A stretch of DNA of 31,912 nucleotides, taken from positions 1 through 31,912 of the forward strand of contig JBAXYW010000001.1 in assembly GCA_041670605.1 (NCBI GenBank), given 5' to 3'. The position numbers and the translations under genes are program-made. Below are positions 39 to 22,459 of this stretch, piece after piece; within the stretch, counting starts at the first letter, position 1, and every line of letters begins with the position of its first letter. Origin of the DNA: Lentisphaeria bacterium (lineage in GTDB: Bacteria; Verrucomicrobiota; Lentisphaeria; Oligosphaerales; Oligosphaeraceae). The notes below the pieces were generated by a model. That model saw only the letters and a list, made by a program, of their open reading frames with translations, did no database searches and was not told where the DNA came from.

Positions 39-118
39 GCCACGATCTCCTGTCAGTTCATAGCTTTCATTGGACTAGCAGGATGCTCGTAAGTTGCTGA
101 GGGTCGTGGGTAATCAGG
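1..118 (-). mobile_element. Left end of an IS1595-family insertion sequence (runs off the window start)
   Basis: Minus strand from 118 reads CCTGATTACCCACGACCCTCAGC, resembling IS1595-type termini as I recall them. It is followed by an AGGAG RBS (47-51) and an ATG at 38 encoding MKKNPIQFQKGF, matching the IS1595-family transposase N-terminal motif (N.IQFQ.G.S). Confidence 0.75.
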
Positions 119-733
119 AAATTCTTTGATTAATCCTCTAAGCCAGAATTCATTGCCGATGATCAGTAAAACGTCGAATATAAAGCGAGCTAGATAATGA
201 GTATGACCAATGTTATTTTTTAGCTGTGCTTTATGCCAATACAGGACTAATGCGGTCAGGCTGTCTAAATTCCCGACCCTGACAAGTTTTCGATAAAAGA
301 TTAAAGAGAACTTTTCGTTTAAGATTTGCTCCGCAGGACACCGTATTTTTGGACTAAACACAATCGCTTTGACTTCCGAATCAAGTTCATTGAAATATTC
401 GTCAAGATTTCTTAAGCCTTTACCGTACAGACCGAGCACTTTCCATAGCGGGTGATTGATTTCCCGCGCTGATCCTTCGATTTCTTTGTCTACAGTGCTG
501 ACCAGGCGAGGTTGAGGGGTGGTCTTGCCTAACTTATAACGATTCCATTTACCTGGCGGATCCTTTTCCATGAAATTAGGGTCTTCCTTGAGTCCAAAAT
601 AGCGTTCCACCTGTTTGGCCTGAGTGTAGCCCAATCCAATCTGTACTCCTTCGTACCAAAAACGCACACGAAAGATTTCAAGCTGATCGCTGGCCCTTGG
701 TATTTTTTTATTAATTGATCGACGAGTAGGCAT
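53..733 (-). pseudogene. Putative DNA-binding/regulatory protein, 3'-truncated by the IS (205 native codons; last 21 aa are IS-derived)
   Basis: 226-aa ORF divergent from a small HTH gene. The tail PDYPRPSATYEHPASPMKAMN begins exactly at the IS terminus (CCT GAT TAC at 118). The regulator function is inferred from context only. Confidence 0.6.
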
Positions 734-892: not shown

Positions 893-1183
893 ATGCAAAC
901 CAACGTTACCGAACCATTAGCACAGGAAATACGGGATGATTTAATCCGATTGTACGGACCATTGTTGACAAGTCGGGATCTGTGGAAAGTGTTGGGTTAT
1001 GCGAGTCCAGGCGCTTATCGGCAAGCCCGATTACGGAAACGTGTGTCGGTACCGGAATTTGAGATTGAAGGACGTAGTGGTCATTTTGCGTTAACGATTG
1101 ATGTTGCACGCTGGTTGGCAAAGCAGCGTATGTCCAATCCTCAAACACATTTACCAGAAGAAGGAGAAAAAGATATGACCTAA
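893..1183 (+). CDS. Small excisionase/AlpA-like HTH DNA-binding protein (~96 aa)
   Basis: Motif LYGPLLTSRDLWKVLGYASPGAYRQARLR resembles a Xis/MerR-like wHTH. ATG 893 is preferred over TTG 851. Lies directly upstream of the tns operon. Confidence 0.65.
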   Translation: MQTNVTEPLAQEIRDDLIRLYGPLLTSRDLWKVLGYASPGAYRQARLRKRVSVPEFEIEGRSGHFALTIDVARWLAKQRMSNPQTHLPEEGEKDMT

Positions 1184-1410: not shown

Positions 1411-2133
1411 ATGTCCTCAAATCTTTGGCAAGGGCGCTGGCGTGGTGTGAAGCCATCCGGTGATAATCATCGCCGAGCCCGGAATGTCATCACTCCATCA
1501 GGCGGCATTGTTCGCGGTAAATTCCCCAGCCGCAAAAATGGCCGGATGGTCCACCATGAAGGCTTGTTAGAGCTCGAAGCCATTTACCTCTTCGAGACTT
1601 CCCCTCGTATCGTTCGATACCGAGAACAACCAAAAACGATCAACTATCCAGACGGCGCTCGATTGCGGCGATATACGCCGGATTTTGAATTGGTGTTGAG
1701 CACCGGCGAAATTGTATTCATCGAAGTCAAACCGGTCAGCAGTCTTAAGCATGACGATGTGCAGCACAAACTCGACCGTGTGACAGAGTACATGCGCCGC
1801 TCGGAAACCGCTTTCGTCATTTTGACTGATCAAGTCATTCGGCAGGAGCCGCGTTTATCCAATTTGCGGTGGATTTATCACCGGGCTTCCCGTATCCCAC
1901 CGACCTCAGACGCAATGACTGTTGCCACCAATAGATATCGCAACTGCCTGCCGTTATCGCTGACGGTGGCATCAAATTTATCAGATGTCGGGGGCATTGA
2001 TCCCTACAGTTTGTTATTGGCCGGACATCTGCGCTGTTCCTTGGATCAGCCGATTTCTCAAGAAACTTTAATAGAATTGAATATGGAGGCAGACAATGGC
2101 TGGTTTTGCATTGCACAAGAACAGGGTTTTTAA
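1411..2133 (+). CDS. tnsA: TnsA-like heteromeric transposase endonuclease subunit
   Basis: GKFPSRKNGRMVHHEGLLE...YREQP...YTPDF...FIEVKP, a TnsA N-terminal PD-(D/E)xK pattern. GGAG RBS precedes ATG 1411 (ORF track start 1378). Confidence 0.9.
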   Translation: MSSNLWQGRWRGVKPSGDNHRRARNVITPSGGIVRGKFPSRKNGRMVHHEGLLELEAIYLFETSPRIVRYREQPKTINYPDGARLRRYTPDFELVLSTGEIVFIEVKPVSSLKHDDVQHKLDRVTEYMRRSETAFVILTDQVIRQEPRLSNLRWIYHRASRIPPTSDAMTVATNRYRNCLPLSLTVASNLSDVGGIDPYSLLLAGHLRCSLDQPISQETLIELNMEADNGWFCIAQEQGF

Positions 2134-4102
2134 TTGGAACGGTACCGATTATCGAATTGATCGTATCCAACCGAATGGAGATTTGCTGTTGGAACGCATG
2201 AATGACGGCCATTTTTCGGTGATCGGTCGTGAGCAACTGCTCACTGAGTATGGGGCAGGCAAAATTTCCGCGAAGACTATTGATACTGCTTCTGCTACTA
2301 CCTCGTTAGTACCTTCATTTTCACGACCGCTCGATGAACTATCCGAAGGCGTCAGAAACGCCGTGAAGCGGCGTAAACATTATCTTGAAAGTATTCTCGA
2401 TAATGGTAATCCGATTTTTACACCGGAGTATTTGAAGCCGTTGATTGGGCAGGCCGCTACGGAAATCGGAGATTTAACCCCGCCGGGCGTAACTACCGTA
2501 TATCGTTGGTATCGTCGATTTAAATCAGTAAATGACCCGCGGGCGATCATTCCGAGGATTGATCTTCGTGGTCCCAAAGAGTTGCGGCAAAATGATCGTA
2601 TTCTCCAACTGGTAGCAGAAGCTTTGGAGGAGGCTTTTAAAGCTTCACCGCAGGCAACATGCAGTGGTGTTTACACGCGCTTACTTGGCAAAATCGATAT
2701 TGAGAACCAGCGATCGATCGGAGGCGAACCCATCAAACCACCTTCCTTACGTACCCTATACCGATTGGTTGAGCGTGCTGAGGCATACGAACTCGTGGTA
2801 TTAAAGGAAGGTAAGGCGGCTGCCGATAGGCGTTTTAGGATCGGCAAAGCCGGTGTAAAAACCTCTCGTATCCTTGAGCGTGTTGAAATCGATCATACAC
2901 CGCTCGATCTATTCCTCATTGACGAAAGAACTTGGCTACCTCTCGGCAGGCCAACGCTAACCGTGATTATCGACCACTATAGCCGGATGTTGCTTGGGTA
3001 CTATTTGAGTTTCGATAGCCCTTCGACTGCGGCGGTGATGGGGGCATTACGGCATGCCATTCTGCCCAAAAAATTGGCAGCTCCGGTCATACCAAACCTA
3101 AAAATCGTCAATGCCTGGTCTTGTTACGGTCTTCCTGAAGTCATGGTGGTCGACAATGGCTTGGAATTCCATAGCAATGACCTGGAAAGTGTGGCTTACG
3201 ACTTGGGAATTCGTATTCAATACTGTCCGAAGCACGCACCACGCTTCAAAGGGGTGGTCGAGCGCCATTTAAAAACGATCAACTACTTCTTTGCTCATCA
3301 GCTGCCTGGTACCAGTTTCGCCAAATTTTATCTGCGCGGCGATTACGATCCACAAAAAGCGGCGTTGTTAACCTTTGCGGAATTTAAGCAAATCTTCGAA
3401 AAGTGGGTAGTCGATGTTTATGCCCAGGACGAACATCGAGGACTCGGTAAAACAACGCCATGGGCTCGTTGGCAAGAAAGTATTGCGCATTATGAACCGA
3501 TACTGCCTGATGATCTGTGTACTTTGCAGCGCCGAATTGGGTTAGTTGAAGAGCGTTCATTACGACGCGATGGCATTTTCCTGCATGGCATCCGCTACAG
3601 CGGCGATGAGCTCGGTCCCATCCTGCGTGGATTTGGTGAAGGGGTGAAAGTTCGGTTGGTCTACGACCCAGAAGACTTGGGTGAAATCCAGGTCTGGGGC
3701 CCCAATGATGCCGAGCCGGTTACGGTAAAGGCACTCGATTACGAGTTTGCTCATGGACTCACCGTCAAACAAAACGAATTTATTCGTCAACATCTGCGGG
3801 AGCAAGGAGCGGAAGTTATCGATAAAGTTGCTCTCGAACGGGCTCGATATGAACTGGCACAAGCCATTGAAACGTTAATGACTAACCGCAAACACCGCGC
3901 AAGACGTCGTAGTGCGGCTTTACGGGGGATCAGTAGTAGTAAACCCAGTGGATCGGAGCCATCAACCATCGCTAATCAGGATTCAGCCGAGGTAATCAAG
4001 CCCACCAAATCAACACCGTCCTCAGATGTCGACCAGAATGCGGAGACGAAGTCAGAGGACATCATCAAATCGTTCCAAATTAAGCGCCCAAAGGATGATT
4101 AG
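2096..4102 (+). CDS. tnsB: TnsB/Mu-like DDE transposase
   Basis: RVEIDHT, VDNGLEF and KGVVER catalytic triad motifs; N-terminal HTH (PPGVTTVYRW); Mu-transposase C-terminal region; overlaps tnsA by 38 bp. Confidence 0.93.
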   Translation: MAGFALHKNRVFNWNGTDYRIDRIQPNGDLLLERMNDGHFSVIGREQLLTEYGAGKISAKTIDTASATTSLVPSFSRPLDELSEGVRNAVKRRKHYLESILDNGNPIFTPEYLKPLIGQAATEIGDLTPPGVTTVYRWYRRFKSVNDPRAIIPRIDLRGPKELRQNDRILQLVAEALEEAFKASPQATCSGVYTRLLGKIDIENQRSIGGEPIKPPSLRTLYRLVERAEAYELVVLKEGKAAADRRFRIGKAGVKTSRILERVEIDHTPLDLFLIDERTWLPLGRPTLTVIIDHYSRMLLGYYLSFDSPSTAAVMGALRHAILPKKLAAPVIPNLKIVNAWSCYGLPEVMVVDNGLEFHSNDLESVAYDLGIRIQYCPKHAPRFKGVVERHLKTINYFFAHQLPGTSFAKFYLRGDYDPQKAALLTFAEFKQIFEKWVVDVYAQDEHRGLGKTTPWARWQESIAHYEPILPDDLCTLQRRIGLVEERSLRRDGIFLHGIRYSGDELGPILRGFGEGVKVRLVYDPEDLGEIQVWGPNDAEPVTVKALDYEFAHGLTVKQNEFIRQHLREQGAEVIDKVALERARYELAQAIETLMTNRKHRARRRSAALRGISSSKPSGSEPSTIANQDSAEVIKPTKSTPSSDVDQNAETKSEDIIKSFQIKRPKDD

Positions 4103-4103
4103 C

Positions 4104-5078
4104 ATGAATTTCAAAGAAATTTTCGACGAGTTACAACGTTTTGATGAAGAGTACATTCCCTTTCCACCCTTTGTCGTCGCGGTTGATGCGGTTAAAGCGA
4201 ATCTTGCGCTGTTTCGCGAGACGGGCATTGCCCAGCATTTGCTAGTGCTGGGTGAAAGCGGTGCCGGAAAAAGCAGTCTCTGCCGCTGGATCGAGCAGCA
4301 ATATTCCAAATTTACGTTGCCTGATCGGGATGTTACACCGGTACTGATTGTGTCGGTTCCCTCGGCGGCTACTATTTCAAGCGTGGCCTCGGCCATGCTT
4401 GAAAAACTGGGTGATCCGGCTGCGACCACCGGAACTGTGTCGGCGAAAACGTCGCGGGTAATTAAGTTATGCCGCGCCTGCCGGGTGGAAATGATCTTGT
4501 TCGACGAAGCCCAGCATATTCACGACCGAGGCAGAGCCACCACGCATTACATGGTGGGTGACTGGTTAAAATCGTTAATCGATCAGACCGGCGTGCCGAC
4601 CGTGTTTCTTGGTCTGCCTCGCCTCGAACAAATCTTACAAGTTAACGAACAACTACGGCGACGCTTTTCGCGGCGTATTCGTTTGGCTTTGGGCCAAAGT
4701 GACAAAAATTCCATCCATGCCGAATGCCTCCAACTGTTCCGATCTCTGGGCTCCTGCTTGCCATTACCATTGTTGTGTGGTCGGTATGGCTGGGATGAAC
4801 TGGGTATGCGTCTACACTACGCCAGTGATGGTCGTGTTGCGTATATCAAAAAACTCTTGGCATCCGCGTTGCGGCTCGCATTGGAAACTGAAATAGTGGA
4901 GATTGGCCCAACACTGCTGGAACAAGCCTTTACCGAGGAAATATGGTGGGAGGGTGTGGGCAAGCTAAATCCTTTCAATCCTGCTTTCGAGTTTCGCCGC
5001 CTGGATCGGGGTAATGAGCCGTTCGAATCTGGTAATTTCAGTAGTGCTCGTAAGGTCCGCAAGGAGGCGGCATGTTGA
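4104..5078 (+). CDS. tnsC: TnsC/TniB AAA+ ATPase
   Basis: Walker A GESGAGKS, Walker B ILFDEAQH, arginine-finger region QLRRRF. ATG 4104 lies 1 bp after the tnsB stop (ORF track start 4026 overlaps tnsB). Confidence 0.9.
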   Translation: MNFKEIFDELQRFDEEYIPFPPFVVAVDAVKANLALFRETGIAQHLLVLGESGAGKSSLCRWIEQQYSKFTLPDRDVTPVLIVSVPSAATISSVASAMLEKLGDPAATTGTVSAKTSRVIKLCRACRVEMILFDEAQHIHDRGRATTHYMVGDWLKSLIDQTGVPTVFLGLPRLEQILQVNEQLRRRFSRRIRLALGQSDKNSIHAECLQLFRSLGSCLPLPLLCGRYGWDELGMRLHYASDGRVAYIKKLLASALRLALETEIVEIGPTLLEQAFTEEIWWEGVGKLNPFNPAFEFRRLDRGNEPFESGNFSSARKVRKEAAC

Positions 5079-5743
5079 TTCCATTTAACGACTATCCGGT
5101 TCGACCTCAGGTAGCGCCAGGGGAAAGTCTGATGGGGTATGTTTACCGGTTTTATAGTGTCAATGGGTATCGTATACCTTACACCGCCAATAAGTGGATA
5201 CGTACCTTATCACGAGGCTGGGCAGAAGACTTCGATGAGGCTTTCAAGGCCACACAATCGATCTTTGGCAATGTTGCCACCCTTGATCGCTTTGGCTGGA
5301 TTCGAGTTCGCCAACATATGGATTCAAATCGATCTGAAACTATGGCATATAGGATTGAGCGAAGTCATCAGCCAGCTGGTTTTTGTCCAACATGCTTGAA
5401 TGAGTCTGGTTTTTATTACGAATTATGGGAATACCTCAAAGTTGAGGTATGTCCGCTTCATGTCTGCAAGTTGGTTACCCGTTGCCCAAACTGTTTAAGT
5501 AATTTTTCCTGGCGCCGGCTTTTAACCGATTGGAGATGCTTCTGCGGGCTAGAGATGACCACTGTACCTACAGAGCCCGTCATGCCTTATTCATTCTCGT
5601 CGACCAATAAAGTGGCATTTATGGTTTTTCCTGAATTGCCCATCACATTGAAACATAACTTGGAGCGGGTGTTAGCGCCTTATGCCGAGGATAGGTTCCT
5701 GCGTGAGTGTAGAGCGAGACGGGAGGACATGACCCGTCGATGA
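5072..5743 (+). CDS. tniQ: Short TniQ-family protein (223 aa)
   Basis: P.RPQ..PGESLMGYVYR N-terminus; Zn-binding FCPTCL, CPLH, CPNC, CFCG; AAGGAGG RBS; overlaps the tnsC stop. Confidence 0.8.
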   Translation: MLIPFNDYPVRPQVAPGESLMGYVYRFYSVNGYRIPYTANKWIRTLSRGWAEDFDEAFKATQSIFGNVATLDRFGWIRVRQHMDSNRSETMAYRIERSHQPAGFCPTCLNESGFYYELWEYLKVEVCPLHVCKLVTRCPNCLSNFSWRRLLTDWRCFCGLEMTTVPTEPVMPYSFSSTNKVAFMVFPELPITLKHNLERVLAPYAEDRFLRECRARREDMTRR

Positions 5744-7590
5744 TGAACGTTGCGACTTACTGTACCTTACCCATGCGTCCGCGTCCCATTGACGGCGAAG
5801 CGACCGTGGGTTTTCTAATGCGAGTGGCCCGAGCAAACGGTTATGAGAGCTTACGACAGTTAGGAAAGACATTCGGCAGTTTTGAAGGGCTATGCCAAGC
5901 ATTGGGCTTGTTAACGGAGGAAAGGCTGGTTCTGTTTGGTCCTTACCCGAGCTTTTGGGGCTCGTCCGAGCTTTCGGACGAGCTAGCCATCTCTGACTTC
6001 AATCATAGCCATTTACGCTGGTGTTCACGCTGTCTTCACGAATCGGCCCATATTCGCGGATCATGGCTGTTAAAAATTAGTTGTGTCTGCAGTCGTCATG
6101 CTGTCCAGCTACAGGACCGGTGTCCCAATTGCGGCAGTGTTCAGCGCCTAGACCGAGTGAACTTCGAGCAATGTGACTGCGGAGCATGGCTTGCCGGTAC
6201 CCAGGGGCAAGAGGTGGCTCATGACTCATTAGTGTGCCTCAGCCAGGCGGTTGAGGCCGCAATTGCCGGTACATCGGTATTGCGGAGCTTCCCCTCCCTG
6301 TCGCTGCCGGAATGGTTGAGATTGATCAGTTACTTGGGCCAGTTCTCGGAAACCTGCCAGCCCAGTAAGCCGGGAAAGCTCGGAAACATGCATCAACTGG
6401 ATACGGCCTTTGCATTGATGCTGCAAGCAAGTTGCTTACTCGACAATTGGCCGAAAAATTTCCATGCCCTTTTGACTGCAATTCAATGTCAGGCGGGAGT
6501 TGAGGTTAAGAACAATACACGCATCCGCGATACGTTCGGCACGCTGTATCATGTCCTTTATAGCGATCTCTCGGACCCTTGTTTCCAGTTTCTGCGCGAC
6601 GAATTCGAGCGCTATTTGCACAAGCATTGGTCGGGTGTAGTGAATAAACGCCACCGAGCGTTTAAGCCAGAGACGATTGCCAGACATCCCCGCGTGACAT
6701 TGAAACAAGCGGCCAAAAAAGCCGGTGTGGCTTTGTCGACCGTTCGCCATTTTGTTCGAGCGGAAGTCATTGCCGGAAATCAGATTGAATTGCCATCTGG
6801 TCGTAAGATGCGCTCAGTGGATGAACAGAGTCTTGGGCAAATCGCGGTTCTGGCTAAAAGCTGTATCATCCTTGATCAGGCTGCCAAACAACTAGCACTG
6901 CCGGAATGTCGGGTTAGGGCGTTAATTTCGGCTGGCATCTTAAAGCCGCTGGTTTCAAGAAAACTCGGCAATGCCGCTACTTGGTTGATTCCCAGGCAAC
7001 AAGTGCAAAGGCTGTTTTTCGCCGGTACTGAAGCCAGTCATTTGCCACCGATAATCAGTGTAAGACACCTCCTCAAGCATTGGCATTTGCGCGATGGCGA
7101 ATTAAAGGCTTTGGTGCTGGCACTTTTGGAACATCAATTCGAGCTGGTGGGTAAACCGACTGAATCCGTACCGCTCGGGAATATCCTATTGGATGAGCAA
7201 AAGGCTCGCCAATGGTTGGTGGAAAAACGCTTTGATGGCGGCGCCAGTATCTCGGTGGATGAGGCAGCACATAGGCTCGGTTTGAAACAACAGGTGGCTT
7301 ACGACTTGGTGAAGTTGGGATTGCTGTCAACTATCCAAGACGATCTTCCCGGTCGGCGAGTCACGCAAGCGAGTCTTGAGGCATTTCAAGCCACCTATAT
7401 CTCATTGGCTGAATATGCCGGGTCATTAAAACGAGCGCCGCGATGGCTATTGAAAACGCTGCCAGTGCAACCTGTTTCAGGACCCATGATCGATGGTAGC
7501 CGGCAGTATTTTTTTCGGCACACCGATCTCAGTAGTCAGAGCCAGCCAACGGATAGTCCGATCAAGCCAAAATTCTTACACGATCCATAA
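5740..7590 (+). CDS. tniQ: Long TniQ/TnsD-like target selector with C-terminal HTH repeats (616 aa)
   Basis: LPMRPRPIDGEATVGFLMR; WCSRCL, CSRH, CPNCG, CDCG Zn motifs; several ..AA..LG-type HTH segments in the C-terminal half. Confidence 0.85.
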   Translation: MMNVATYCTLPMRPRPIDGEATVGFLMRVARANGYESLRQLGKTFGSFEGLCQALGLLTEERLVLFGPYPSFWGSSELSDELAISDFNHSHLRWCSRCLHESAHIRGSWLLKISCVCSRHAVQLQDRCPNCGSVQRLDRVNFEQCDCGAWLAGTQGQEVAHDSLVCLSQAVEAAIAGTSVLRSFPSLSLPEWLRLISYLGQFSETCQPSKPGKLGNMHQLDTAFALMLQASCLLDNWPKNFHALLTAIQCQAGVEVKNNTRIRDTFGTLYHVLYSDLSDPCFQFLRDEFERYLHKHWSGVVNKRHRAFKPETIARHPRVTLKQAAKKAGVALSTVRHFVRAEVIAGNQIELPSGRKMRSVDEQSLGQIAVLAKSCIILDQAAKQLALPECRVRALISAGILKPLVSRKLGNAATWLIPRQQVQRLFFAGTEASHLPPIISVRHLLKHWHLRDGELKALVLALLEHQFELVGKPTESVPLGNILLDEQKARQWLVEKRFDGGASISVDEAAHRLGLKQQVAYDLVKLGLLSTIQDDLPGRRVTQASLEAFQATYISLAEYAGSLKRAPRWLLKTLPVQPVSGPMIDGSRQYFFRHTDLSSQSQPTDSPIKPKFLHDP

Positions 7591-7593: not shown

Positions 7594-8244
7594 ATGAAAA
7601 CCATCACCTTTATTCGTCATGGCCAAAGTACGGCGAATGCCGGCGGTATCACGATGGCACACGATGCCATTCCGCTATCGGAATTGGGTATACGTCAGGC
7701 CAAGATTTTGGCTGATATGCTCAAACTGCAACCGTCGGCGATTTATGTATCCGAATTTGTTCGGACTCATGAAACGGCCAAACCGTTTTGCGAAAAAGTA
7801 TCGATGCCAGCGACAGTTCAGCCGTTGCTCAATGAATTATCGAGTATCGATCCAGCGTTGATACAAGGTATGAATGGCGAACAGCGCCGTCCTATTGCCG
7901 ATGCTTATTGGCAAGCGGCAGATCCAACTAAACGCATGGGCAAGTGCGCCGACACCTTCGTTGAATTCGAGCAGAGGGTTGCTGCGTTCACCTCCGAATT
8001 AGATGCTTTGCCGGATAACTCGGTGCTATTTGGTCACGGCATTTGGTTTGGCATGCTGACTTGGAAATTACTGGGGTTCAACGCCAGGGATAGTCAGAGT
8101 ATCAAAGCCTTCCGCCGGTTCCAGATGGGATTGCCGATGCCGAATTGTGCGGTGTATACGCTTGACTCTCCGGCTCCCTGTCATTGGCGGGTAAGGGTTA
8201 ATGAAGAAGTGATGCACAGGATATTAGCGTTGGCGTCTAAGTGA
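7594..8244 (+). CDS. Histidine phosphatase (phosphoglycerate mutase-like) family protein
   Basis: N-terminal FIRHGQS motif, RT.ETA, and a C-terminal FGHG catalytic His. Starts 3 bp after the tniQ stop. Confidence 0.9.
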   Translation: MKTITFIRHGQSTANAGGITMAHDAIPLSELGIRQAKILADMLKLQPSAIYVSEFVRTHETAKPFCEKVSMPATVQPLLNELSSIDPALIQGMNGEQRRPIADAYWQAADPTKRMGKCADTFVEFEQRVAAFTSELDALPDNSVLFGHGIWFGMLTWKLLGFNARDSQSIKAFRRFQMGLPMPNCAVYTLDSPAPCHWRVRVNEEVMHRILALASK

Positions 8245-8290
8245 GATGGGTATCCATCAATCTCTTTTCTATTGGGTGAGGAATATGAAT

Positions 8291-8689
8291 ATGCAATATG
8301 AATGCTTGCCAAAATCGGATCTTCAAAGGCTAAAGCAAGAAGTCCTGGATCAGCTGCCCGAGGCTGCATTACCCGCAAATTTGCCGGATCATTGGTTGGA
8401 TATGATTGCTCGCGATCTGGAAGAAACAGTCGGAACTGGAGGGCATGGTGGTGACTCGTCGTCCTATGCATCGGCTCCTTTAGCGCTTATCGTGCATATT
8501 ATGGCCGCTAAAACTTCGAGCGAACGTCTTGAAATTTCACTTGAAACTTTGCATCGCTATTTCTGTGATCTTCGTATTGAAGTCAACCTGGAAATCGTAA
8601 ATCGTAGAACTGAGATCAAAGTAGAGTCGGCAACGCTGGAAACCATTTTTTCGAATCGGGATGTCAGAATACTTAATCGAAGAAGATAA
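8291..8689 (+). CDS. Hypothetical protein (~132 aa)
   Basis: Open frame 8246-8689; a GAGG RBS fits ATG 8291 best. No recognised motif. Confidence 0.7.
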   Translation: MQYECLPKSDLQRLKQEVLDQLPEAALPANLPDHWLDMIARDLEETVGTGGHGGDSSSYASAPLALIVHIMAAKTSSERLEISLETLHRYFCDLRIEVNLEIVNRRTEIKVESATLETIFSNRDVRILNRRR

Positions 8690-8907
8690 GTCTCAATATT
8701 GGGAGGTGAAATCAAGTAGGATCAAGCCGGCATGACGCGTTAATGGTAAATAAATTGCAGACCCTTGGAAACCAACGCTTAGAAATATGATTGTTCGTGA
8801 TTTGGAGTTCGAATAATAGAGCAGCTCTAGCAGTGCTGCGAGCAGATTAATGCCATTCATTAATGGGTTTATAGTAAGGAATTTAGGCTGTTTCAGTATG
8901 GCTAAAA

Positions 8908-8937
8908 TCGACTGCCTGGATAAGGGGCTGATACAAT
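8908..8937 (+). promoter_or_regulatory. Candidate sigma70 promoter for the AlbA_2/ATPase gene
   Basis: TCGACT (8908-8913), 18-bp spacer, TGa-TACAAT extended -10 (8929-8937). Confidence 0.35.
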
Positions 8938-8984
8938 CGCCTGTTGAATTACGACTGGTAGTAATTCATCTTGAATAAGGCATA

Positions 8985-10634
8985 TTGGAGCAAAATCGAT
9001 TGAGTCAGGAAGGACAGCTGCTCGACAAAAAATCCCTTCGGTCAGTGACCGGAAAGACAGCTGACTGGAATGAGTTGGCTAAGGATTGTATTGCCTTTGC
9101 AAACGCTACCGGCGGTCGGTTGTTGATAGGTATCGAAGATAATCAGGCGTCCCCAGACGCCAACCAGATTATTCCTGACGACCTCCCGGACACCATTCGA
9201 CGCAAGCTAGCCGAGCGTACTGTCAACGTCACCTCGCTGCCAGTCATTGTTACCGATCCAAACGGTGGACGATATATAGAATTGACCATTCCTCGATCCA
9301 TAGCTGTAGCATCTACCACGGATGGACGTTATTTCCTCCGTATTGCCGATCAGAGCAAGCCTATAACTGGCGATGATGTCATGCGGCTTGCAGGTGAACG
9401 ATCAGCATTACCTTGGGAAACCCAAACCAGCCTAAATGTTGGTCGTGATAATGTTGACAGCGACAAGCTTGAAAAACTGATTAACGACCTTCGAGCTTCG
9501 GATCGAGTGAAATCGTCGGTAAAAGAAAAATCGTCAGCAGAGTTACTTGATCACTATCAGCTAGCACAGGGACAATTTCTGACAAACCTGGGTATTCTTT
9601 GCGTTGGTCAACAACGGCACCGAGTCCAGCTAGCCACGGCGCCCGTTATTCAGTTCATCAAGTACGACGAACAAGACCAGAAAGTAAACAAGCTGGTATG
9701 GGATGATCAGACTGCTAACCCGATGGAGTTAATAGAATCCGTCTGGCAAGAGATACCTGATTTTCGTGAACGCTATGAATTGCCCGATGGCCTTTTTCGC
9801 CAATACATTCCGGCCTTTGACGAGATTGTAATTCGTGAGCTTCTGGTCAATGCACTGGTTCACCGACCCTATACCCAACGAGGCGATATTTTCCTCAACC
9901 TGTTTCCGGATCGGCTCGAAATCGTTAACCCAGGACTGCTGCCTTTGGGCGTTACACCCAAAAACGTGCTTCACACCACGGTGCGCCGTAACGAAAACCT
10001 GGCCAGGTTATTCCACGACCTAAAGCTAATGGAACGAGAAGGCAGCGGCTTCGATAAGATCTATGAAATCTTGTTGTCGCAAGGCAGACCGGCACCAGAG
10101 TTAATCGAAACGCACGACCGTGTTCAGGTTACAGTGCGCAGGCGCATCCTAAAACCCGATGTCATCGACTTTATAGCGAAAGCAGACCAGACATACCAAC
10201 TCACTCAACGCGAACGCATTACCTTGGGCTTATTGGCTCAACGTGAAGCCCTTTCCGCTCGAGAATTGATTGCTGCATTAGAACTTTCATCAGTCGATGC
10301 ACTTCAACCCTGGTTATCCAGGCTGCTTGATTGGGAAATTGTTCGCAGTATTGGCCGCACCCAGGCCACTCGCTATTACATTGATCCCGCGCTATTGAGA
10401 AGTCTGGATTTTGTTGGTGGCACCACGCTCAAGCGTATCGAACCCCATCGATTACTGGCCCTGATTGTGGAGGATGTCAGGCACTATCCGTTATCCAAAA
10501 TAAGCGACATTCACCAGCGCATTGGACCCGAGATACCTCGTTCGCGCATCAGGCGTAGTATTGAACAATTGGTTAATGACGGCAAGTTGCAGGCAGAGGG
10601 GGTGCGAAGTGGCACACGCTATCGTCTCCCATAA
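8985..10634 (+). CDS. AlbA_2/Schlafen-domain protein with RecG-C-like ATP-binding domain and C-terminal wHTH
   Basis: EGQLLDKK and IAFANATGGRLLIGIED (AlbA_2 signature); IRELLVNALVHRPY, NPG, RRNENLA, EREGSGF (HATPase_c_4-like); C-terminal wHTH ending GVRSGTRYRL. The TTG start is uncertain. Confidence 0.85.
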   Translation: MEQNRLSQEGQLLDKKSLRSVTGKTADWNELAKDCIAFANATGGRLLIGIEDNQASPDANQIIPDDLPDTIRRKLAERTVNVTSLPVIVTDPNGGRYIELTIPRSIAVASTTDGRYFLRIADQSKPITGDDVMRLAGERSALPWETQTSLNVGRDNVDSDKLEKLINDLRASDRVKSSVKEKSSAELLDHYQLAQGQFLTNLGILCVGQQRHRVQLATAPVIQFIKYDEQDQKVNKLVWDDQTANPMELIESVWQEIPDFRERYELPDGLFRQYIPAFDEIVIRELLVNALVHRPYTQRGDIFLNLFPDRLEIVNPGLLPLGVTPKNVLHTTVRRNENLARLFHDLKLMEREGSGFDKIYEILLSQGRPAPELIETHDRVQVTVRRRILKPDVIDFIAKADQTYQLTQRERITLGLLAQREALSARELIAALELSSVDALQPWLSRLLDWEIVRSIGRTQATRYYIDPALLRSLDFVGGTTLKRIEPHRLLALIVEDVRHYPLSKISDIHQRIGPEIPRSRIRRSIEQLVNDGKLQAEGVRSGTRYRLP

Positions 10635-10635
10635 T

Positions 10636-10773
10636 TTGGCTCAAAATCGGCTCTATCGGCCAAGCTTGAGTCAAACAGCTGCGCTAAATAGCCAGCATTT
10701 TGAAATAAGTGATTGTAATAAAATGTATTTTTTTTGGCTCACATTTAAATCATGAACCAAGTTGACGAGCCAA
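10636..10773. repeat. Array of TTGGCTCA-like 8-mers in both orientations
   Basis: Exact forward copies at 10636 and 10734; reverse 7/8 copies at 10667, 10753 and 10766; 6/8 copies at 10647 and 10656. Confidence 0.55.
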
Positions 10774-10829
10774 AATGGGCGATACTCCAGAAGTTACGGT
10801 ATACAACGCGGCAGGGAAGACGGTAACGC

Positions 10830-13628
10830 ATGTCTAAATCCGAAGCACAAACGCGCGCAGAGCTTATCGATCAGCACCTTGCCCAATCTGGCTGGAATGT
10901 TAAAGACCCTACACAGGTCGTCGAAGAATTCGACATCTTGACGGGTCTGCCAGAGGGCGTGGATGAACCACGTACGCCTTACGAGGGTCACCAATTCAGC
11001 GACTACGTCCTGCTGGGCAAAGATCGTAAACCACTGGCCGTCATCGAAGCCAAGAAGTCCAGCCGTGATGCCGCCATAGGCCGTGAGCAAGCCAAGCAAT
11101 ACTGCTACAACATTCAGAAGCAGTTGGGCTGCGAGTTGCCGTTCTGCTTTTACACCAATGGCCTCGAAACCTACTTTTGGGATCTGGAAAATGCCCCGCC
11201 GCGCAAAGTGGTTGGCTTTCCTACCCGTGATGATCTTGAACGCTTTGCCTACATCCGTCGCAATCGCAAACCATTGACGCAGGAGTTTATCAATACATCT
11301 ATTGCTGGCCGAGATTATCAAATCCGTGCCATCCGTGCTGTGCTGGAAGGCATCGAGCAAAAGAAGCGTGATTTTCTTTTAGTCATGGCCACCGGCACCG
11401 GCAAGACCCGTACCTGTATTGCCATGACCGATGCCTTGATGCGCGCTGCTCATGCCGAAAAGGTGCTGTTCCTCGTCGACCGCATCGCGCTGCGCGAACA
11501 GGCACTACTGGCCTTCAAAGAGCACTTACCCAACGAACCACGCTGGCCCAACGTGGGCGAAAAACTGATTGCCAAAGATCGCCGCATTTACGTGGCCACC
11601 TATCCCACGATGCTCAACGTCATACGGGATGAGACCCAACATTTGTCACCGCATTTTTTCGACTTCATCGTGGTCGATGAAAGCCACCGCTCGATTTACA
11701 ACACCTATGGCGAAATCCTCGATTACTTCAAAACCCTCACCCTGGGCTTGACGGCGACACCGACCGACATCATAGACCACAACACCTTCCAGCTTTTTCA
11801 CTGTGAAGATGGTCTGCCAACCTTTGCCTACACCTTTGAGGAAGCCGTTAACCGGGTGCCGCCTTACCTCTGCAACTTTCAGGTCATGAAGATTCAGACC
11901 AAGTTCCAGATGGAGGGCATCAGCAAGCGCACCATTTCACTGGAAGACCAGAAAAAGCTTATTTTGCAAGGCAAGGATGTCGAGGAAATTAACTTCGAAG
12001 GTACCCAGCTCGAAAAGCAAGTCATCAACAAAGGCACCAATACCCTGATCGTCAAGGAGTTCATGGAGGAGTGCATCAAGGACACCAATGGTGTACTGCC
12101 CGGCAAGACCATTTTCTTCTGCTCATCCAAAGCCCACGCCCGCCGCATCGAAGAAATCTTCGACAAACTCTATCCGCAATACCACGGCGAACTGGCCAAG
12201 GTCCTTGTGTCTGACGATCCTCGCGTGTATGGCAAAGGTGGCTTGCTGGATCAGTTCACCAACAATGACATGCCGCGCGTCGCCATCAGCGTGGATATGC
12301 TCGATACTGGTATCGACGTGCGCGAGATCGTCAACCTTGTTTTCGCCAAGCCGGTGTATTCATATACCAAATTCTGGCAGATGATCGGACGTGGTACCCG
12401 GTTGCTCGAAACCAGCAAGCCCAAACCTTGGTGTACCGAAAAGGATGTGTTTCTAATTATCGATTGCTGGGATAACTTTGAATACTTCAAGCTGCAACCC
12501 AAAGGCAAGGAACTGAAACCGCAGTTGCCGCTGCCGGTGCGCCTGGTCGGACTGCGCCTGGACAAGATTGAAAAAGCCATTGACAGCGGCCGTGCCGATG
12601 TTGCCGAGAGAGAAGTTGCCAAACTGCGCCGGCAGGTCGCCGCACTACCCAAGGAATCCGTGGTAATCAAAGAGGCCGCCACCGCGTTGGCCCGCCTCGA
12701 CGAGGAAAACTTCTGGATCAGCCTGAACCATCAGAGGCTTGAATTTCTACGCGCCGAGATTAAGCCCCTTTTTCGCACTGTTTCCGAAGCCGACTTCAAA
12801 GCCATGCGTTTCGAGCGCGACCTGCTTGAATATTCGTTGGCTCTGCTAAATGAAGACAAGGAACAAGCCGACACCCTCAAGGATGGCATCGTCGAGCAAA
12901 TCAGTGAGCTGCCGCTCTCGGTCAGCTTCGTAAAGCAGGAAGAAACCCTGATTCGCGCCGCGCAAACCAACCATTACTGGGCCAAGGCCGATGAAGACCG
13001 TTTTGACGAAATGGTAGAAAAACTCGGCCCGCTGATGAAATTCCGCGAACAAATGACCGGTCCCGGCCCGGTGCATCTCGATCTGACCGATGTACTGCAC
13101 AACAAGGAAATCGTCGAGTTCGGCCCGCAACACGAGGCCGTCAGCATCAGCCGCTACCGCGAGATGGTCGAAGCCTTAATTAACGAATTGACCGCGCACA
13201 ACCCAATACTGCTGAAGATCAAGCACGGTGAAGCGGTCACGCTAGACGAGGCCGATCAACTGGCCGAACTGCTGCACGATGAGCACCCGCACATCACCGA
13301 AGACTTGCTGCGCCAGGTCTATAAAAATCACAAGGCCCGCTTCATCCAATTCATCCGCCACATTCTCGGTATTGAAGTACTTAAGAGCTTTCCCGATGAA
13401 GTCAGTGCCGCATTTGCCCAGTTCATTCGTGCCCATACCACACTCACCAACCGTCAATTGGAATTCCTCAACCTATTAGAGAAGTTCATCATCGAACGCG
13501 AAAAAGTGGATAAAAAAGATCTGATCAATACGCCCTTCACGGTCATTCACCCGCAAGGTATCCGTGGTGTATTCAGTCCTGCCGAAATCAACGAAATCTT
13601 GCAGTTAACCGAACGGTTGGCTGCGTAA
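10830..13628 (+). CDS. hsdR: Type I restriction endonuclease subunit R (EcoAI/EcoEI-like architecture)
   Basis: SDYVL...VIEAKK nuclease motif, MATGTGKT, DESH, LTATP, QMIGRGTR, and an EcoEI_R_C-like C-terminus. Confidence 0.95.
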   Translation: MSKSEAQTRAELIDQHLAQSGWNVKDPTQVVEEFDILTGLPEGVDEPRTPYEGHQFSDYVLLGKDRKPLAVIEAKKSSRDAAIGREQAKQYCYNIQKQLGCELPFCFYTNGLETYFWDLENAPPRKVVGFPTRDDLERFAYIRRNRKPLTQEFINTSIAGRDYQIRAIRAVLEGIEQKKRDFLLVMATGTGKTRTCIAMTDALMRAAHAEKVLFLVDRIALREQALLAFKEHLPNEPRWPNVGEKLIAKDRRIYVATYPTMLNVIRDETQHLSPHFFDFIVVDESHRSIYNTYGEILDYFKTLTLGLTATPTDIIDHNTFQLFHCEDGLPTFAYTFEEAVNRVPPYLCNFQVMKIQTKFQMEGISKRTISLEDQKKLILQGKDVEEINFEGTQLEKQVINKGTNTLIVKEFMEECIKDTNGVLPGKTIFFCSSKAHARRIEEIFDKLYPQYHGELAKVLVSDDPRVYGKGGLLDQFTNNDMPRVAISVDMLDTGIDVREIVNLVFAKPVYSYTKFWQMIGRGTRLLETSKPKPWCTEKDVFLIIDCWDNFEYFKLQPKGKELKPQLPLPVRLVGLRLDKIEKAIDSGRADVAEREVAKLRRQVAALPKESVVIKEAATALARLDEENFWISLNHQRLEFLRAEIKPLFRTVSEADFKAMRFERDLLEYSLALLNEDKEQADTLKDGIVEQISELPLSVSFVKQEETLIRAAQTNHYWAKADEDRFDEMVEKLGPLMKFREQMTGPGPVHLDLTDVLHNKEIVEFGPQHEAVSISRYREMVEALINELTAHNPILLKIKHGEAVTLDEADQLAELLHDEHPHITEDLLRQVYKNHKARFIQFIRHILGIEVLKSFPDEVSAAFAQFIRAHTTLTNRQLEFLNLLEKFIIEREKVDKKDLINTPFTVIHPQGIRGVFSPAEINEILQLTERLAA

Positions 13629-13642
13629 TACAAAGGTAAACC

Positions 13643-15349
13643 ATGCTCCAAAACAACCCCGAACTCAAAAGCAAGATCGACCAGCTCTGGAACAAATTCT
13701 GGAGCGGCGGCATCAGCAACCCGCTTACCGCCATCGAGCAAATCACTTATTTGCTATTCATGAAGCGGCTCGACGAACTGGACCATAAAAAACAGGCTGA
13801 CGCCGAATGGACGGGAGAGCCCTACACATCCAAATTTAAGGGTACATGGATTCCGACCGAATACCGGGCGCGGCGAGAAGAAAAAGATACGGATGCTGAA
13901 TGGTTGAAAAAGCTCGAAGATGAGCAGCGCTACGCCATCGATAAAAACACTCTGCGCTGGACTGAATTCAAACACATGCAGGCCGAAGAGATGCTGCAGC
14001 ACGTGCAAGGGAAGGTGTTCCCATTTCTCAAAGACCTTAACGGCGCCGAGTCCAACTTCACCCACCACATGAAAAACGCGGTGTTCATCATTCCCAAGCC
14101 AGCGTTGCTGGTGGAAGCGGTGAAGACCATCGACGAAATCTTCGCAGTGATGGAGAAGGATTCGCAGGAAAAAGGTCAGGCTTTTCAGGACATCCAGGGT
14201 GATGTCTATGAAATGCTGCTGTCGGAAATCGCTACCGCCGGAAAAAACGGCCAGTTCCGCACCCCTCGCCACATCATCAAACTGATGGCCGATCTTGTAC
14301 AACCGCAACTGGGCCATAAGATAGCCGATCCGGCATGCGGCTCAGGTGGTTTCTTGCTCGGTGCGTATCAGTACATCGTCACTCAGCTCGCCATCAAAGC
14401 AGGCACCAAAGACCTAGCTCCAGATGAAGATGGCTTTGTACGCACCTCGGTCGCCGCCGCGCTCACCGAAAATGCCCAAGCCATTCTGTCCGGTTCGCTT
14501 TGGGGTTACGACATCGACGGCACCATGGTGCGCCTGGGGTTGATGAACCTGATGATGCACGGCATCGACGAACCGCATATCGATTACAAGGACACGCTCA
14601 GCAAGAGCTTTGTCGAAGAGTCCGAATACGACATCGTGATGGCCAATCCGCCGTTTACCGGCAGCATCGACAAGGGCGACATCAACGAAAACCTGCAACT
14701 GGCCACTACCAAAACCGAGCTGCTGTTTGTTGAGAATATCTACCGCCTGCTAAAAATAGGCGGTACCGCTGGTGTGATTGTGCCGCAGGGGGTGCTGTTT
14801 GGTTCTGGCGGCGCCTTCAAAACCCTACGCCAGTTGCTGGTGGAGCGTTGCGACCTCAAGGCCGTCATCACCCTGCCCAGCGGCGTGTTCAAACCCTATG
14901 CCGGGGTCAGCACTGCCATTCTGTTGTTTACCAAGGTCTGGGGGCCGAAAGACAAAGTCACCCAGCCTGCCACCAAACACATCTGGTTTTACGAAATGGC
15001 CGCCGACGGCTATTCGCTGGACGACAAACGTAGCAAGCAGGAAGGCAATGGCGACCTGCAAGACATCATTACCAAATACCACGTCCGCAACTCGGCCACC
15101 GACACTGACCGCACGGCGAAATACTTCATGGTGCCGCGTACCGAGATCGCAGACGAAAAGAACAACTATGACCTTTCGCTGTCACGCTACAAAACCGATG
15201 TGTTCGAGGAAGTACACTACGACGCGCCGGGCGTGATTCTGGATCGGTTGATTCAGGCCGAGGTAGGCGATGTGGACGAGACGGGACTTGCCAAGGTGCA
15301 AAGCGGAATCGTGCGCGAGTTGTTGGAATTGAAGGGGATGGTGGGATGA
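13643..15349 (+). CDS. hsdM: Type I R-M methyltransferase subunit M
   Basis: GQFRTPRHII, DPACGSGGFL (motif I) and NPPF (motif IV, N6-adenine). Confidence 0.95.
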   Translation: MLQNNPELKSKIDQLWNKFWSGGISNPLTAIEQITYLLFMKRLDELDHKKQADAEWTGEPYTSKFKGTWIPTEYRARREEKDTDAEWLKKLEDEQRYAIDKNTLRWTEFKHMQAEEMLQHVQGKVFPFLKDLNGAESNFTHHMKNAVFIIPKPALLVEAVKTIDEIFAVMEKDSQEKGQAFQDIQGDVYEMLLSEIATAGKNGQFRTPRHIIKLMADLVQPQLGHKIADPACGSGGFLLGAYQYIVTQLAIKAGTKDLAPDEDGFVRTSVAAALTENAQAILSGSLWGYDIDGTMVRLGLMNLMMHGIDEPHIDYKDTLSKSFVEESEYDIVMANPPFTGSIDKGDINENLQLATTKTELLFVENIYRLLKIGGTAGVIVPQGVLFGSGGAFKTLRQLLVERCDLKAVITLPSGVFKPYAGVSTAILLFTKVWGPKDKVTQPATKHIWFYEMAADGYSLDDKRSKQEGNGDLQDIITKYHVRNSATDTDRTAKYFMVPRTEIADEKNNYDLSLSRYKTDVFEEVHYDAPGVILDRLIQAEVGDVDETGLAKVQSGIVRELLELKGMVG

Positions 15350-16890
15350 AAGTTAAATCCCTAAACGAAATTACAAACCCAAAGCAATGGAAGAACCTTC
15401 CAATCTCAAAGCTGAAAGATTCAGGGTTCCCTGTGTATGGGGCAAACGGAATTATTGGTTTTTTTGACGAATACAATCATGCGAATCCCACCATCGCTAT
15501 TACATGCCGAGGCGCAACGTGCGGAAATATTCACATCACTCGTGAAAATTCCTATATCACTTCAAATGCGATGGCGCTTGATGACCTCGACGAAAACGAG
15601 TGCGAGCTAAATTATCTAGCACAGTACCTTCGATATCGTGGCTTGAGTGATGTAACGACGGGCGCAGCGCAGCCGCAAATAACCAGAGCAAATTTAGAAA
15701 AAGTAACAATACCCCTACCGCCCCTCGACGACCAAATCCGCATTGCCCATCTTCTCGGCAAAGTGGAAGGGCTGATCGCCCGGCGCAAACAGCACCTGCA
15801 ACAACTCGACGACCTGCTCAAGAGCGTGTTTCTGGAGATGTTTGGCGACCCGGTGAGGAATGAGAAGGGGTGGGTCACCAAAACGCTCCCTCAACTTGTT
15901 CTTCCAGGAAAGAATTCCTTAAAGCGGGGGCCATTCGGGGGAGCTCTAAAGAAGGAAATCTTTGTTGAGACGGGCTATTTGGTTTATGAACAAAACCACG
16001 CCCTAAACAATGATTATTCATTCGCAAGGTACTTTGTAACAGAGGAAAAATATCAAGAGTTAATCGACTTCAAAGTCGTGCCTGGAGATGTATTGATTAG
16101 CTGTTCGGGCGTCTATTTGGGAAAGCTATCTATAGTCCCTGCAGATGCGAAGCCTGGGATCATCAATCAGGCGCTACTTAAGGTTTCGTTGGATCCTCGA
16201 AAGATTCGGCATAGGTTCTTTGTTCATGTCTTTGGGAGTCCGCAGTTCAAAGGAAAATACTTCCCCTCAAATCGTGGTGGGGCTATACCGAACCTGCCGC
16301 CAATGTCGGTAATGAAGGAAATCCCGTTTATTTACCCGCCACTTGAGTTACAGCAGGATTTCACGGACCTTTTCGAAAAGGTGGAGTGGCTCAAGTCTCA
16401 GTACCAGCAAAGCCTCACCGATCTGGAGTCACTTTACGGCGTAGTGAGCCAGCAGGCATTCAAGGGTGAGCTGGATTTGTCGCGCGTACCGCTACCGACC
16501 ATGCCGCCCGAAGGAGAACAACCTATGGCTATCGAGCTATCACCACCACAGACCGAAGAAATCGCCATCAATCTGCCCGATAATGAATTAATGTTGATCG
16601 CACTGGAGAATCCAGAGCAACGCCCAGCACTGCTCGGCCACTGGCTGGAGGCTTATCGCGGGCAGCTCGGCGACGCCCCCTTTTCCTTGGAGCGCTTCAT
16701 GGCTGCCGCGCAAACCCGGCTCTCTGAATTGCATCCGGACACTGACTTTGAGTTGGGTTCTGACGACTACGAGCACATCAAGACATGGGCATTTGAGGCA
16801 CTGGCCTCCGGCAAATTGATGCAAGTACTTGACGATGACGAGAACCTAATTAAATTGCGCAAGCGATCTGATCAATGGGGAAGTTGGTAA
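15346..16890 (+). CDS. hsdS: Type I R-M specificity subunit S, two TRDs plus a ~138-aa C-terminal extension
   Basis: TRD1 (PVYGANG...AQPQIT), conserved PLPPLDDQIRIA...FLEMFGDP, TRD2, then PPLELQQDF...AFKGEL ending at 16473, followed by extra sequence. ATGA overlap with hsdM. Confidence 0.92.
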   Translation: MKVKSLNEITNPKQWKNLPISKLKDSGFPVYGANGIIGFFDEYNHANPTIAITCRGATCGNIHITRENSYITSNAMALDDLDENECELNYLAQYLRYRGLSDVTTGAAQPQITRANLEKVTIPLPPLDDQIRIAHLLGKVEGLIARRKQHLQQLDDLLKSVFLEMFGDPVRNEKGWVTKTLPQLVLPGKNSLKRGPFGGALKKEIFVETGYLVYEQNHALNNDYSFARYFVTEEKYQELIDFKVVPGDVLISCSGVYLGKLSIVPADAKPGIINQALLKVSLDPRKIRHRFFVHVFGSPQFKGKYFPSNRGGAIPNLPPMSVMKEIPFIYPPLELQQDFTDLFEKVEWLKSQYQQSLTDLESLYGVVSQQAFKGELDLSRVPLPTMPPEGEQPMAIELSPPQTEEIAINLPDNELMLIALENPEQRPALLGHWLEAYRGQLGDAPFSLERFMAAAQTRLSELHPDTDFELGSDDYEHIKTWAFEALASGKLMQVLDDDENLIKLRKRSDQWGSW

Positions 16891-16893
16891 GCG

Positions 16894-19775: not shown

Positions 19776-20054
19776 AACGCCTCGTTAGCTGGCTGTAAGC
19801 CGAATGGGGGGCTAGTCTTATCTTAATCCTCCGATTTTAGCTTAGAAAACCTGACGAATTGGAAGACAGCGTCAGACTTTTGCTAGTTTTTTGCTAAAAT
19901 GGATTATAGTCCTTACCGGAAATGATTTCTATCTAATTGAATAATATATAATTTATATTTCTATTAGATGCTAAGCCTCACTCATTTGTGGAAAAAATTC
20001 GAAGCCGTTTTCCAATAGTGGCATTTATCTTTAGGATTGAAAAATTAAGCCAAT

Positions 20055-22084: not shown

Positions 22085-22250
22085 ATTTTTCACTATTAGT
22101 GGCACAAAATCCGGATTTTTTCATTAATTGTGTCAAAAGTGGGTATGATGGCTGACATAAATAATGAAAAATCGCTTTAAAATCAATGGACCATTTTTCA
22201 CTAATTCTGTCACCCAACAACTTGGAAGCCTGACACAGATATTGAAAAAT
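22085..22250. repeat. Five imperfect copies of a 20-bp motif TGACAnAAwTArTGAAAAAT
   Basis: 22085-22104 (rev, TGCCACTAATAGTGAAAAAT), 22116-22135 (rev, TGACACAATTAATGAAAAAA), 22153-22172 (fwd, TGACATAAATAATGAAAAAT), 22193-22212 (rev, TGACAGAATTAGTGAAAAAT), 22231-22250 (fwd, TGACACAGATATTGAAAAAT). Confidence 0.85.
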
Positions 22251-22459
22251 CCAGTGCTGCTAAATGTGTTCTTTTTCCATGGGGATAGCACAGCAAATTA
22301 CAAAGCCAAGTGATAGCTCGTGAAGGCTACTCAATGGATTATGCGGATTTTCTGGCTTTGTCTCTAAGGCTTAGGAAATAATGGCGTTTGAATACCTGCT
22401 TCTCTTTAGTTAGTGCAAGCGTGATTCAACAATATGATTTTGATCTAGTGGTTATATGA

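Follow-up and report, generated by a model that had tools for sequence, protein, structure and literature searches.

What does a Tn7-like transposon that has no cas genes do with a second, short version of its target selector TniQ? This question is raised by contig JBAXYW010000001.1 (C1) of GCA_041670605.1, a metagenome-assembled genome (MAG) labeled Lentisphaeria bacterium that comprises 593 contigs and is 86% complete. The window analyzed here is the entire contig of 31,912 bp. An earlier note on this DNA had described an element in which a short TniQ and a long, TnsD-like TniQ are encoded side by side, and had proposed that the short protein serves a second targeting pathway. We find that the short TniQ is a conserved, truncated descendant of a larger TniQ. 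The reading that we favor, with a probability of about 0.4, is that it acts as a modulator at the level of the AAA+ adaptor TnsC. In the following, W denotes the copy of the element in this contig, L-numbers denote loci of relatives and G000 the source MAG.

The core of the element consists of five genes on the plus strand (Table 1), all confirmed by Pfam. TnsA, TnsB and TnsC occur together with at least one TniQ/TnsD selector, and TnsB repeats with a 5'-TGT terminus are present at the far end, as is characteristic of Tn7-like heteromeric transposases. The tnsA product also matches NF033179 (TnsA-like), below the curated cut-off, and rve (PF00665) scores 29.9 bits on TnsB, under the cut-off of 32.6. 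The closest solved structure to TnsC is VchTnsC of the type I-F3 CRISPR-associated transposon (CAST) Tn6677 (E 1.3e-20), and profiles of both TniQ families give their top scores among solved structures against I-F3 TniQs. The genes for TnsC and the short TniQ overlap by ATGTTGA, with the ribosome-binding site AAGGAGG ahead, and those for the short and the long TniQ by ATGA. Judged from these junctions, tnsC, short tniQ and long tniQ are translationally coupled, which agrees with the earlier reading of the two tniQ genes.

Contig C1 begins within the element. Because there are no TnsB-like sites at positions 1-1400, at least 22 kb of the element lie in C1 and the tnsA-side end lies off the contig; repeat searches of positions 700-1450 and of the whole contig detected no TnsB sites at 700-1450 or elsewhere toward the tnsA side, which ruled out an end within the contig. 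The opposite end is well defined. The 20-bp motif TGACAGAATTAGTGAAAAAT occurs in 5 copies within 22085-22250, compared with 0.01 expected, and the outermost inward-facing copy gives the terminus TGT-TGGG-TGACA (TGT-N4-TGACA), which ends at 22219. The element is very likely a CRISPR-less Tn7-like transposon of at least 22 kb, most of which lies in the contig, and Pfam, PADLOC and array searches of the contig bear out the earlier description of an element with a short and a long TniQ and no cas genes.

What kind of TniQ is the short protein? Its first helical domain is accompanied by a pair of zinc sites, C105/C108/C127/H130 and C138/C141/C156/C158, and by a short tail made up of three short helices. 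Its identity to the long TniQ is 27%, confined to the N-terminal ~150 residues. The top Foldseek matches of an AlphaFold2 (AF2) model (pLDDT 83) are the type V-K TniQ of ShCAST (8bd5_Q, 7oxd and 8ea3_Q; target TM-scores 0.53-0.57). According to this model the protein has the minimal V-K-like architecture, that is a helical domain plus zinc fingers without a second helical domain; the earlier view that it has the size of an adaptor and no DNA-reading extension holds in this respect.

The phylogeny of the TniQ proteins, a check which the earlier note had suggested, gives the origin of the short form. The short TniQ has few close relatives, and in an exhaustive search of 1.8 billion representatives its nearest kin are mostly proteins of 450-470 amino acids (aa). 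In most relatives (L009, L013, L025, L028-L039) the slot after tnsC and before the long tniQ gene, which here holds the short form, is taken by a TniQ of ~460 aa. Seven short forms (170-224 aa; 216-224 aa when full-length) group in the tree as sister to a 464-aa protein, with an SH-aLRT support of 98 for the eight-member set, and the clade of short forms is nested within the ~460-aa TniQs. Aligned with the ~460-aa form, the short ones break off near its residue 225, i.e. the truncation is clean. The ~460-aa TniQ itself was modeled with a pLDDT of 89 and best matches the TniQ of I-F3 CASTs over ~355 columns. From the tree, the slot, the alignment and the models of the ~460-aa form it follows that the short TniQ derives by C-terminal truncation from an I-F3-like, adaptor-type TniQ and has lost the second helical domain. 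The idea that it is a CAST-type adaptor by descent is not upheld, and since it groups by sequence with the I-F3-like TniQs, its resemblance to the V-K protein reflects convergent reduction in size. We also considered that the short forms might be in-frame internal deletions that retain the original C-terminus; this was ruled out, as their C-termini are unrelated to those of the long forms.

A protein that arose through loss of more than half of its ancestor could be a non-functional leftover of the ~460-aa gene, dispensable and not yet deleted. L026 has the same gene in a broken state: a ~460-aa tniQ (10969-13909) is split by an insert of ~1.5 kb into open reading frames (ORFs) for a 259-aa N-terminal and a 225-aa C-terminal part. 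In L011/L012 a short TniQ that follows a long TniQ with a tnsC-3'-like extension looks like recombination debris. The short TniQ is furthermore the fastest-evolving and most divergent core gene; W and L002 are 48% identical in this protein, against 94% in TnsC and 72% in the long TniQ, and TnsC is generally 90-98% identical among close relatives. However, dN/dS of the short TniQ is 0.19-0.28 and not ~1, compared with 0.13-0.24 for the long TniQ (unsaturated pairs). The ORFs are intact at 216-224 aa in at least four allelic lineages, which are only 40-50% identical to each other; none of the eight zinc ligands varies among 57 sequences, and an N-terminal motif is invariant too; and both the ribosome-binding site and the start/stop overlaps have been kept. 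The substitution pattern indicates that the short TniQ is under purifying selection, and we consider it improbable that the gene is a mere leftover. A degenerate, dispensable duplicate, which the earlier note had named as the outcome that would undo its proposal, is weakened by this selection as an explanation.

The divergent patch around the short tniQ gene is sharply bordered (W 5160-5832 in comparison with L002; W 5176-5756 in comparison with L009). These sharp borders imply that the slot has been swapped by recombination. L011 and L012 (6001-8663), the loci with the apparent debris, belong to another gyrB-homing lineage with a TnsC that is only 36% identical. Their long TniQ has 668 aa, compared with 614 aa in its kin, and the extra C-terminus resembles that of the W-type TnsC; a 220-aa short TniQ, 43% identical to that of W, follows the long TniQ with the same 7-nt overlap. 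From the sequences it seems that a segment with the 3' end of tnsC and the short tniQ was grafted there by recombination between elements.

Where do elements of this kind insert? Following another suggestion of the earlier note, insertion sites were mapped in relatives. A scan with a TnsC alignment yielded 42 loci, 13 of which include gyrB in the fetched flank. In all 13, which come from Gamma- and Betaproteobacteria, a TGTCG... terminus with three sites starts 2-20 bp past the gyrB stop codon. One example is L007 of Methylomonas defluvii OY6, with three copies of the TGACAGAATTAGTGAAAAAT motif, the first of them 4 nt past the stop of a recF-gyrB pair; within this element, genes for a DEAD-box helicase, OrfX and OrfY separate the gyrB-side end from tnsA. 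For L002, L003, L009, L012 and L013, alignment and a search for repeats yielded no convincing termini.

Relatives that have only the long TniQ (L040, L044, L045, L047 and L049-L052) are also located at gyrB, with the same offset, and therefore the long TniQ alone seems to suffice for the selection of gyrB. Most likely it is the selector for the 3' end of this gene, in analogy to TnsD at glmS. It would read the 3' coding end of gyrB via its excisionase-type helix-turn-helix (HTH) modules and recruit TnsC in the way TnsD does. The site can be occupied more than once: on one scaffold of Methylobacter tundripaludum L047 and L026 are ~28 kb apart, with gyrB upstream of L047.

The occupancy of gyrB by long-only elements also bears on the idea that short and long TniQ form a heteromer, in which both are needed for the gyrB targeting complex on TnsC, i.e. 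a single pathway with a two-subunit selector. The ATGA overlap, which couples translation, speaks for such a complex, and so does the order tnsC, first TniQ, long TniQ, which is kept in most relatives. There are also structural precedents, because I-F3 Cascade complexes contain two TniQ chains (I and J) and the Tn7 TnsC:TnsD:DNA complex was solved at a 7:2:1 stoichiometry (PDB 8glw title). However, the long TniQ seems to do without the short one at gyrB; the overlap is replaced by a gap of 31-57 nt in L023, L024 and L027; and the pairing is not fixed, as is evident from the unequal divergence of the two TniQs between W and L002. A two-subunit selector is for these reasons doubtful.

If the short TniQ is not part of the gyrB selector, it could have a partner of its own. 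The Pfam and PADLOC scans detected no cas family in the large ORFs of the contig, and Tandem Repeats Finder and Rfam detected no CRISPR array or matching RNA family; there is also no tRNA. CASTs have nuclease-deficient cas effector genes linked to tniQ and a short array within the element, and neither was found here, just as no cas effector genes were found in the loci of relatives. For the window this confirms the earlier statement that no known guide partner is present. Since the tnsA-side end lies off the contig, the absence of cas is shown for C1 only, and cas genes and an array could in principle lie beyond that missing end. Such a hidden CAST could be imagined because the contig starts within the element, its core genes are related to those of I-F3 CASTs, and gains and losses of I-F Cascade have occurred in a branch of dual TniQ-TnsD elements (Faure et al., PMC10293859). 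Furthermore, Cas1 genes are present on four other contigs of the MAG, with a probable array beside Cas1 on contig C363, although nothing ties this array to the element.

Several facts make a hidden CAST very improbable. The cas genes of CASTs normally come after tniQ, and this position is filled by unrelated cargo in W as well as in every relative. On their tnsA side, relatives have OrfX/OrfY, a DEAD helicase or HTH genes and no cas genes. In the MAG the only TniQ domains are the two described here, and no Csy3, DevR/Cas7 or Cas12-type TNB domain was found; Csy3, the Cas7 of type I-F, is absent in four of five genomes that carry relatives, including two with a short TniQ. The Cas1 genes fit ordinary adaptive systems, as coopted CAST systems have mostly lost the genes for spacer acquisition (PMC11406308). 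The lack of a Cas12-type TNB domain in the MAG and of an array or RNA in the contig also sets the protein apart from the functional V-K family, which works with Cas12k and a single guide RNA (sgRNA). No TnsE-like match was detected among the genes of the contig. A combination of TniQ and TnsF as in Tn6022-type elements, in which a TnsF of ~500 aa, resembling an inactivated tyrosine recombinase, shares an operon with a short TniQ while tnsE lies on the opposite strand, is ruled against by the genes that follow the TniQs, a 216-aa His_Phos_1 protein and a 147-aa ORF; the TnsF fold was not tested structurally.

The short TniQ might alternatively be an adaptor which couples TnsC to a non-CRISPR selector from the element or its host and opens a second, e.g. 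plasmid-directed, pathway beside gyrB homing. The same hypothesis has been stated for dual TniQ-TnsD loci (Faure et al. 2023, PMC10293859), and two pathways are the paradigm of Tn7. Purifying selection and a conserved ELP motif in the tail of the short TniQ would fit this function, as would the exchange of its slot in the manner of a specificity cassette, and the V-K TniQ demonstrates that a TniQ with only a helical domain and zinc fingers can serve as an adaptor. Against this, no conserved partner gene was found for the short TniQ among the relatives compared. OrfX and OrfY, the latter being the upstream HTH protein which the earlier note had offered as a possible partner, were rejected as specific partners: OrfX/OrfY and the alternative HTH_31 module each occur with both short and ~460-aa first TniQs. 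Nor does OrfX co-vary with the short TniQ, as L002 and L003 are 83% identical in OrfX versus 45% in the short TniQ, and W and L003 49% versus 81%. Downstream of the TniQs genes vary, and clusters are sporadic (147-aa ORF in 4 loci, His_Phos_1 in 3, an 80-aa ORF in 3) with none common to all carriers of the short form. With the truncation, moreover, the second helical domain was lost, through which I-F3 TniQ contacts its partner, and every relative with a readable flank is located behind gyrB, with no second site seen. A search of plasmids with the short TniQ yielded only five distant matches with less than 33% identity and no sign of plasmid-borne copies. On balance an adaptor of this kind is rather unlikely. 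The more specific proposition that the truncated TniQ is a working adaptor linking TnsC to a novel, perhaps host-encoded selector, so that it provides a second route and swapped alleles have different specificities, we regard as unlikely.

The simplest role for the short TniQ is that of a modulator of TnsC, because the protein is reduced to its N-terminal module, is under selection and has no linked partner. The N-terminal domain of TniQ is known to bind TnsC, to bind DNA non-specifically and to promote TnsC oligomerization (PMC12372198), and in I-D and I-B2 CASTs the TnsD pathway becomes less efficient when TniQ is co-expressed (PMC9881144). The truncation kept the N-terminal helical and zinc module and removed the second helical domain, the region of partner contact in other TniQs. 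The remaining protein may then load, cap or compete for TnsC, and the homing to gyrB that the long TniQ directs would be tuned in this way. Interference with rival elements stacked at the same site is a further possible effect. We think that an independent target selector is less likely than a modulator, and we hold to the latter tentatively, for the following points weigh against it. The modulator role, including the binding of TnsC by the short TniQ, is drawn from domain content alone. A slot that diverges rapidly and is swapped like a cassette would fit a specificity determinant as well, and the conserved tail (residues 170-223, with the ELP motif) could dock a partner that is encoded elsewhere. 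As to the homing that would be tuned, the tnsA-side end of W and its flank are missing, so that insertion of this copy at gyrB is inferred from relatives; the sole gyrB in the MAG (contig C273; L022, 1760-2494) is unoccupied and directly followed by gyrA.

How does the locus compare with known systems? The arrangement singled out in the earlier note is not unusual. A survey has reported 998 dual TniQ-TnsD loci, mostly without cas genes, and its authors already suggested that the small TniQ works for an additional selector (Faure et al. 2023, Mol Cell, PMC10293859); relatives homing to parE without cas genes have been described as well (Petassi et al. 2020). In the definition of Faure et al. 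2023 such loci encode tandem TniQs, of which the larger exceeds 400 aa and has a DNA-binding extension and the other is substantially smaller, which corresponds to the 616 and 223 aa observed here. Like those loci, the element has two tandem TniQ genes after tnsC, no cas, no tnsE and a cargo of anti-phage defense genes. On present evidence the architecture is already catalogued, and the locus is an ordinary representative of it. It differs from the dual loci of Faure et al. in that the small copy is no close in-situ duplicate of the large one but a truncated third type, the ~460-aa I-F3-like TniQ, and in its landing site: no mention of gyrB as an attachment site of Tn7-like elements was found in the papers searched, which is not proof that it is unpublished.

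The Tn7017/Parashewanella-type I-F3 CASTs (Petassi et al. 2020; Faure et al. 2023) have a related backbone of TnsA, TnsB and TnsC (~325 aa) and an adaptor-type TniQ next to a TnsD-like one. They and their cas-less kin target the 3' end of the gene for a type IIA topoisomerase B subunit, parE, a paralogue of gyrB. Compared by description with Tn7017, the element has no Cascade, gyrB in place of parE and an adaptor TniQ that is reduced to its N-terminal module. The V-K TniQ (ShCAST; PDB 7oxd, 8bd5, 8ea3) shares with the short TniQ the helical domain and zinc fingers without second helical domain, whereas its partners Cas12k, sgRNA and uS15 have no counterpart here. Prototypic Tn7, which inserts at attTn7 behind glmS, is alike in its TnsA/TnsB transposase, the AAA+ protein TnsC, a TniQ-domain selector whose target is an essential gene's 3' end, and ends with multiple TnsB sites and a 5'-TGT terminus. 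Unlike Tn7, the element has no TnsE, a short TnsC, a selector C-terminus built from HTH_17, insertion 2-20 bp past the stop codon and the extra short TniQ.

The host of the element calls for a separate comment. Relatives of the TnsC or the short TniQ of W were found in none of the 46 other genomes from the family of the MAG, and all close relatives are in Methylococcales. These two facts, together with the unoccupied gyrB of the MAG, indicate that contig C1 is probably mis-binned or was recently acquired. The ends of dozens of contigs in G000 (e.g. C6 7986-8084, C125, C143, C341) carry tandem repeats of one family, which have a period of 48-50 bp and contain GGATCCGGAGCTGGAAGCTCCGGG; they probably cause fragmentation of the assembly.

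The remaining parts of the contig are cargo and flanking genes (Table 1). Directly after the long TniQ the cargo starts with the His_Phos_1 gene (216 aa) and the 147-aa ORF; further cargo genes encode a Schlafen/AlbA-like protein, a type I restriction-modification (R-M) system with a PtuA/PtuB-like ATPase-HNH pair, and PDC-M03A/B (a HipA-like kinase plus HIRAN). Relatives differ in the genes 3' of the long TniQ. A His_Phos_1 gene followed by an ORF of 115-147 aa nevertheless recurs at this position in a few distantly related elements (contig 7594-8689; L005, L032, L033, L036), and this pair might be more than random cargo. Beyond the end at 22219, the region 22231-31912 contains an AbiD/AbiF gene and another type I R-M operon, in which a PtuA/PtuB pair is embedded; these genes were probably carried by an older element of the same array that has since decayed. 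The lone TnsB-like site at the start of this region is probably a remnant of such an older element in a tandem array; a neighboring element fits here because stacked elements were seen in M. tundripaludum.

On the tnsA side, OrfX has no Pfam or NCBIfam match and is 32-88% identical to its counterparts in L002, L003, L005 and L007 and 44% to that in L026. It has 284-331 aa in relatives versus 226 aa here, and its C-terminus differs left of position 119. In the 94%-identical L005 OrfX has 291 aa, and the nucleotide homology to L005 ends at position 119, 118 bp from the start of the contig, which suggests that the gene was interrupted by a rearrangement, an insertion or an assembly break. OrfY, which is followed on its 3' side by a hairpin with a T-run (1221-1252), likewise gave no family match in Pfam or NCBIfam; in other relatives an HTH_31 gene replaces it. 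A protein of ~390 aa without family match recurs between the gyrB-side end and tnsA of several relatives (L002 3531-4694, L003 3551-4741, L029, L043); this position is off-contig here.

Table 1. Features of the element and its surroundings in contig C1.
Feature	Coordinates	Strand	Evidence
OrfX, 226 aa, no assigned family	53..733	-	conserved in tnsA-side region of sub-lineage
OrfY, 96 aa, transcribed divergently from OrfX	893..1183	+	72-100% identical among five relatives compared
tnsA, endonuclease subunit of heteromeric transposase, 240 aa	1411..2133	+	PF08722 TnsA-like_N, E 2.5e-10, in 1378/1411-2133
tnsB, DDE transposase, 668 aa	2096..4102	+	Mu-transpos_C (PF09299) above cut-off
tnsC, AAA+ adaptor, TniB type, 324 aa	4104..5078	+	PF05621, E 2.2e-26; TniB/AAA_22 in 4026/4104-5078
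Short TniQ, 223 aa	5072..5743	+	PF06527, E 2.9e-11
Long TnsD-like TniQ, 616 aa, C-terminal HTH_17/excisionase-like modules	5740..7590	+	PF06527 and PF12728 (HTH_17, residues 505-551); TIGR01764
Cargo	7594..21763	+	Pfam/PADLOC-type scans; genes as given in the text
Transposon end distal to tnsA	22085..22219	.	four of five 20-bp putative TnsB-binding sites, consensus TGACAGAATTAGTGAAAAAT
Fifth, lone TnsB-like site, 11 bp beyond end, oriented like tnsA-side end	22231..22250	+	motif match

Dual-TniQ, cas-less Tn7-like elements are common, and this lineage provides a natural series at one site: elements with only the long TniQ, elements with an additional ~460-aa adaptor-type TniQ and elements with the conserved 220-aa stump. 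An extra pathway, or a tuning of TnsC by an extra TniQ, bears on the engineering of CASTs and Tn7, in which the contact between TniQ and TnsC limits activity. If the short TniQ were a working adaptor for a novel selector, the gyrB-homing family would have a second targeting route. The landing site at gyrB, finally, accounts for the stacked defense islands near the replication-origin region in methanotrophs and Betaproteobacteria.

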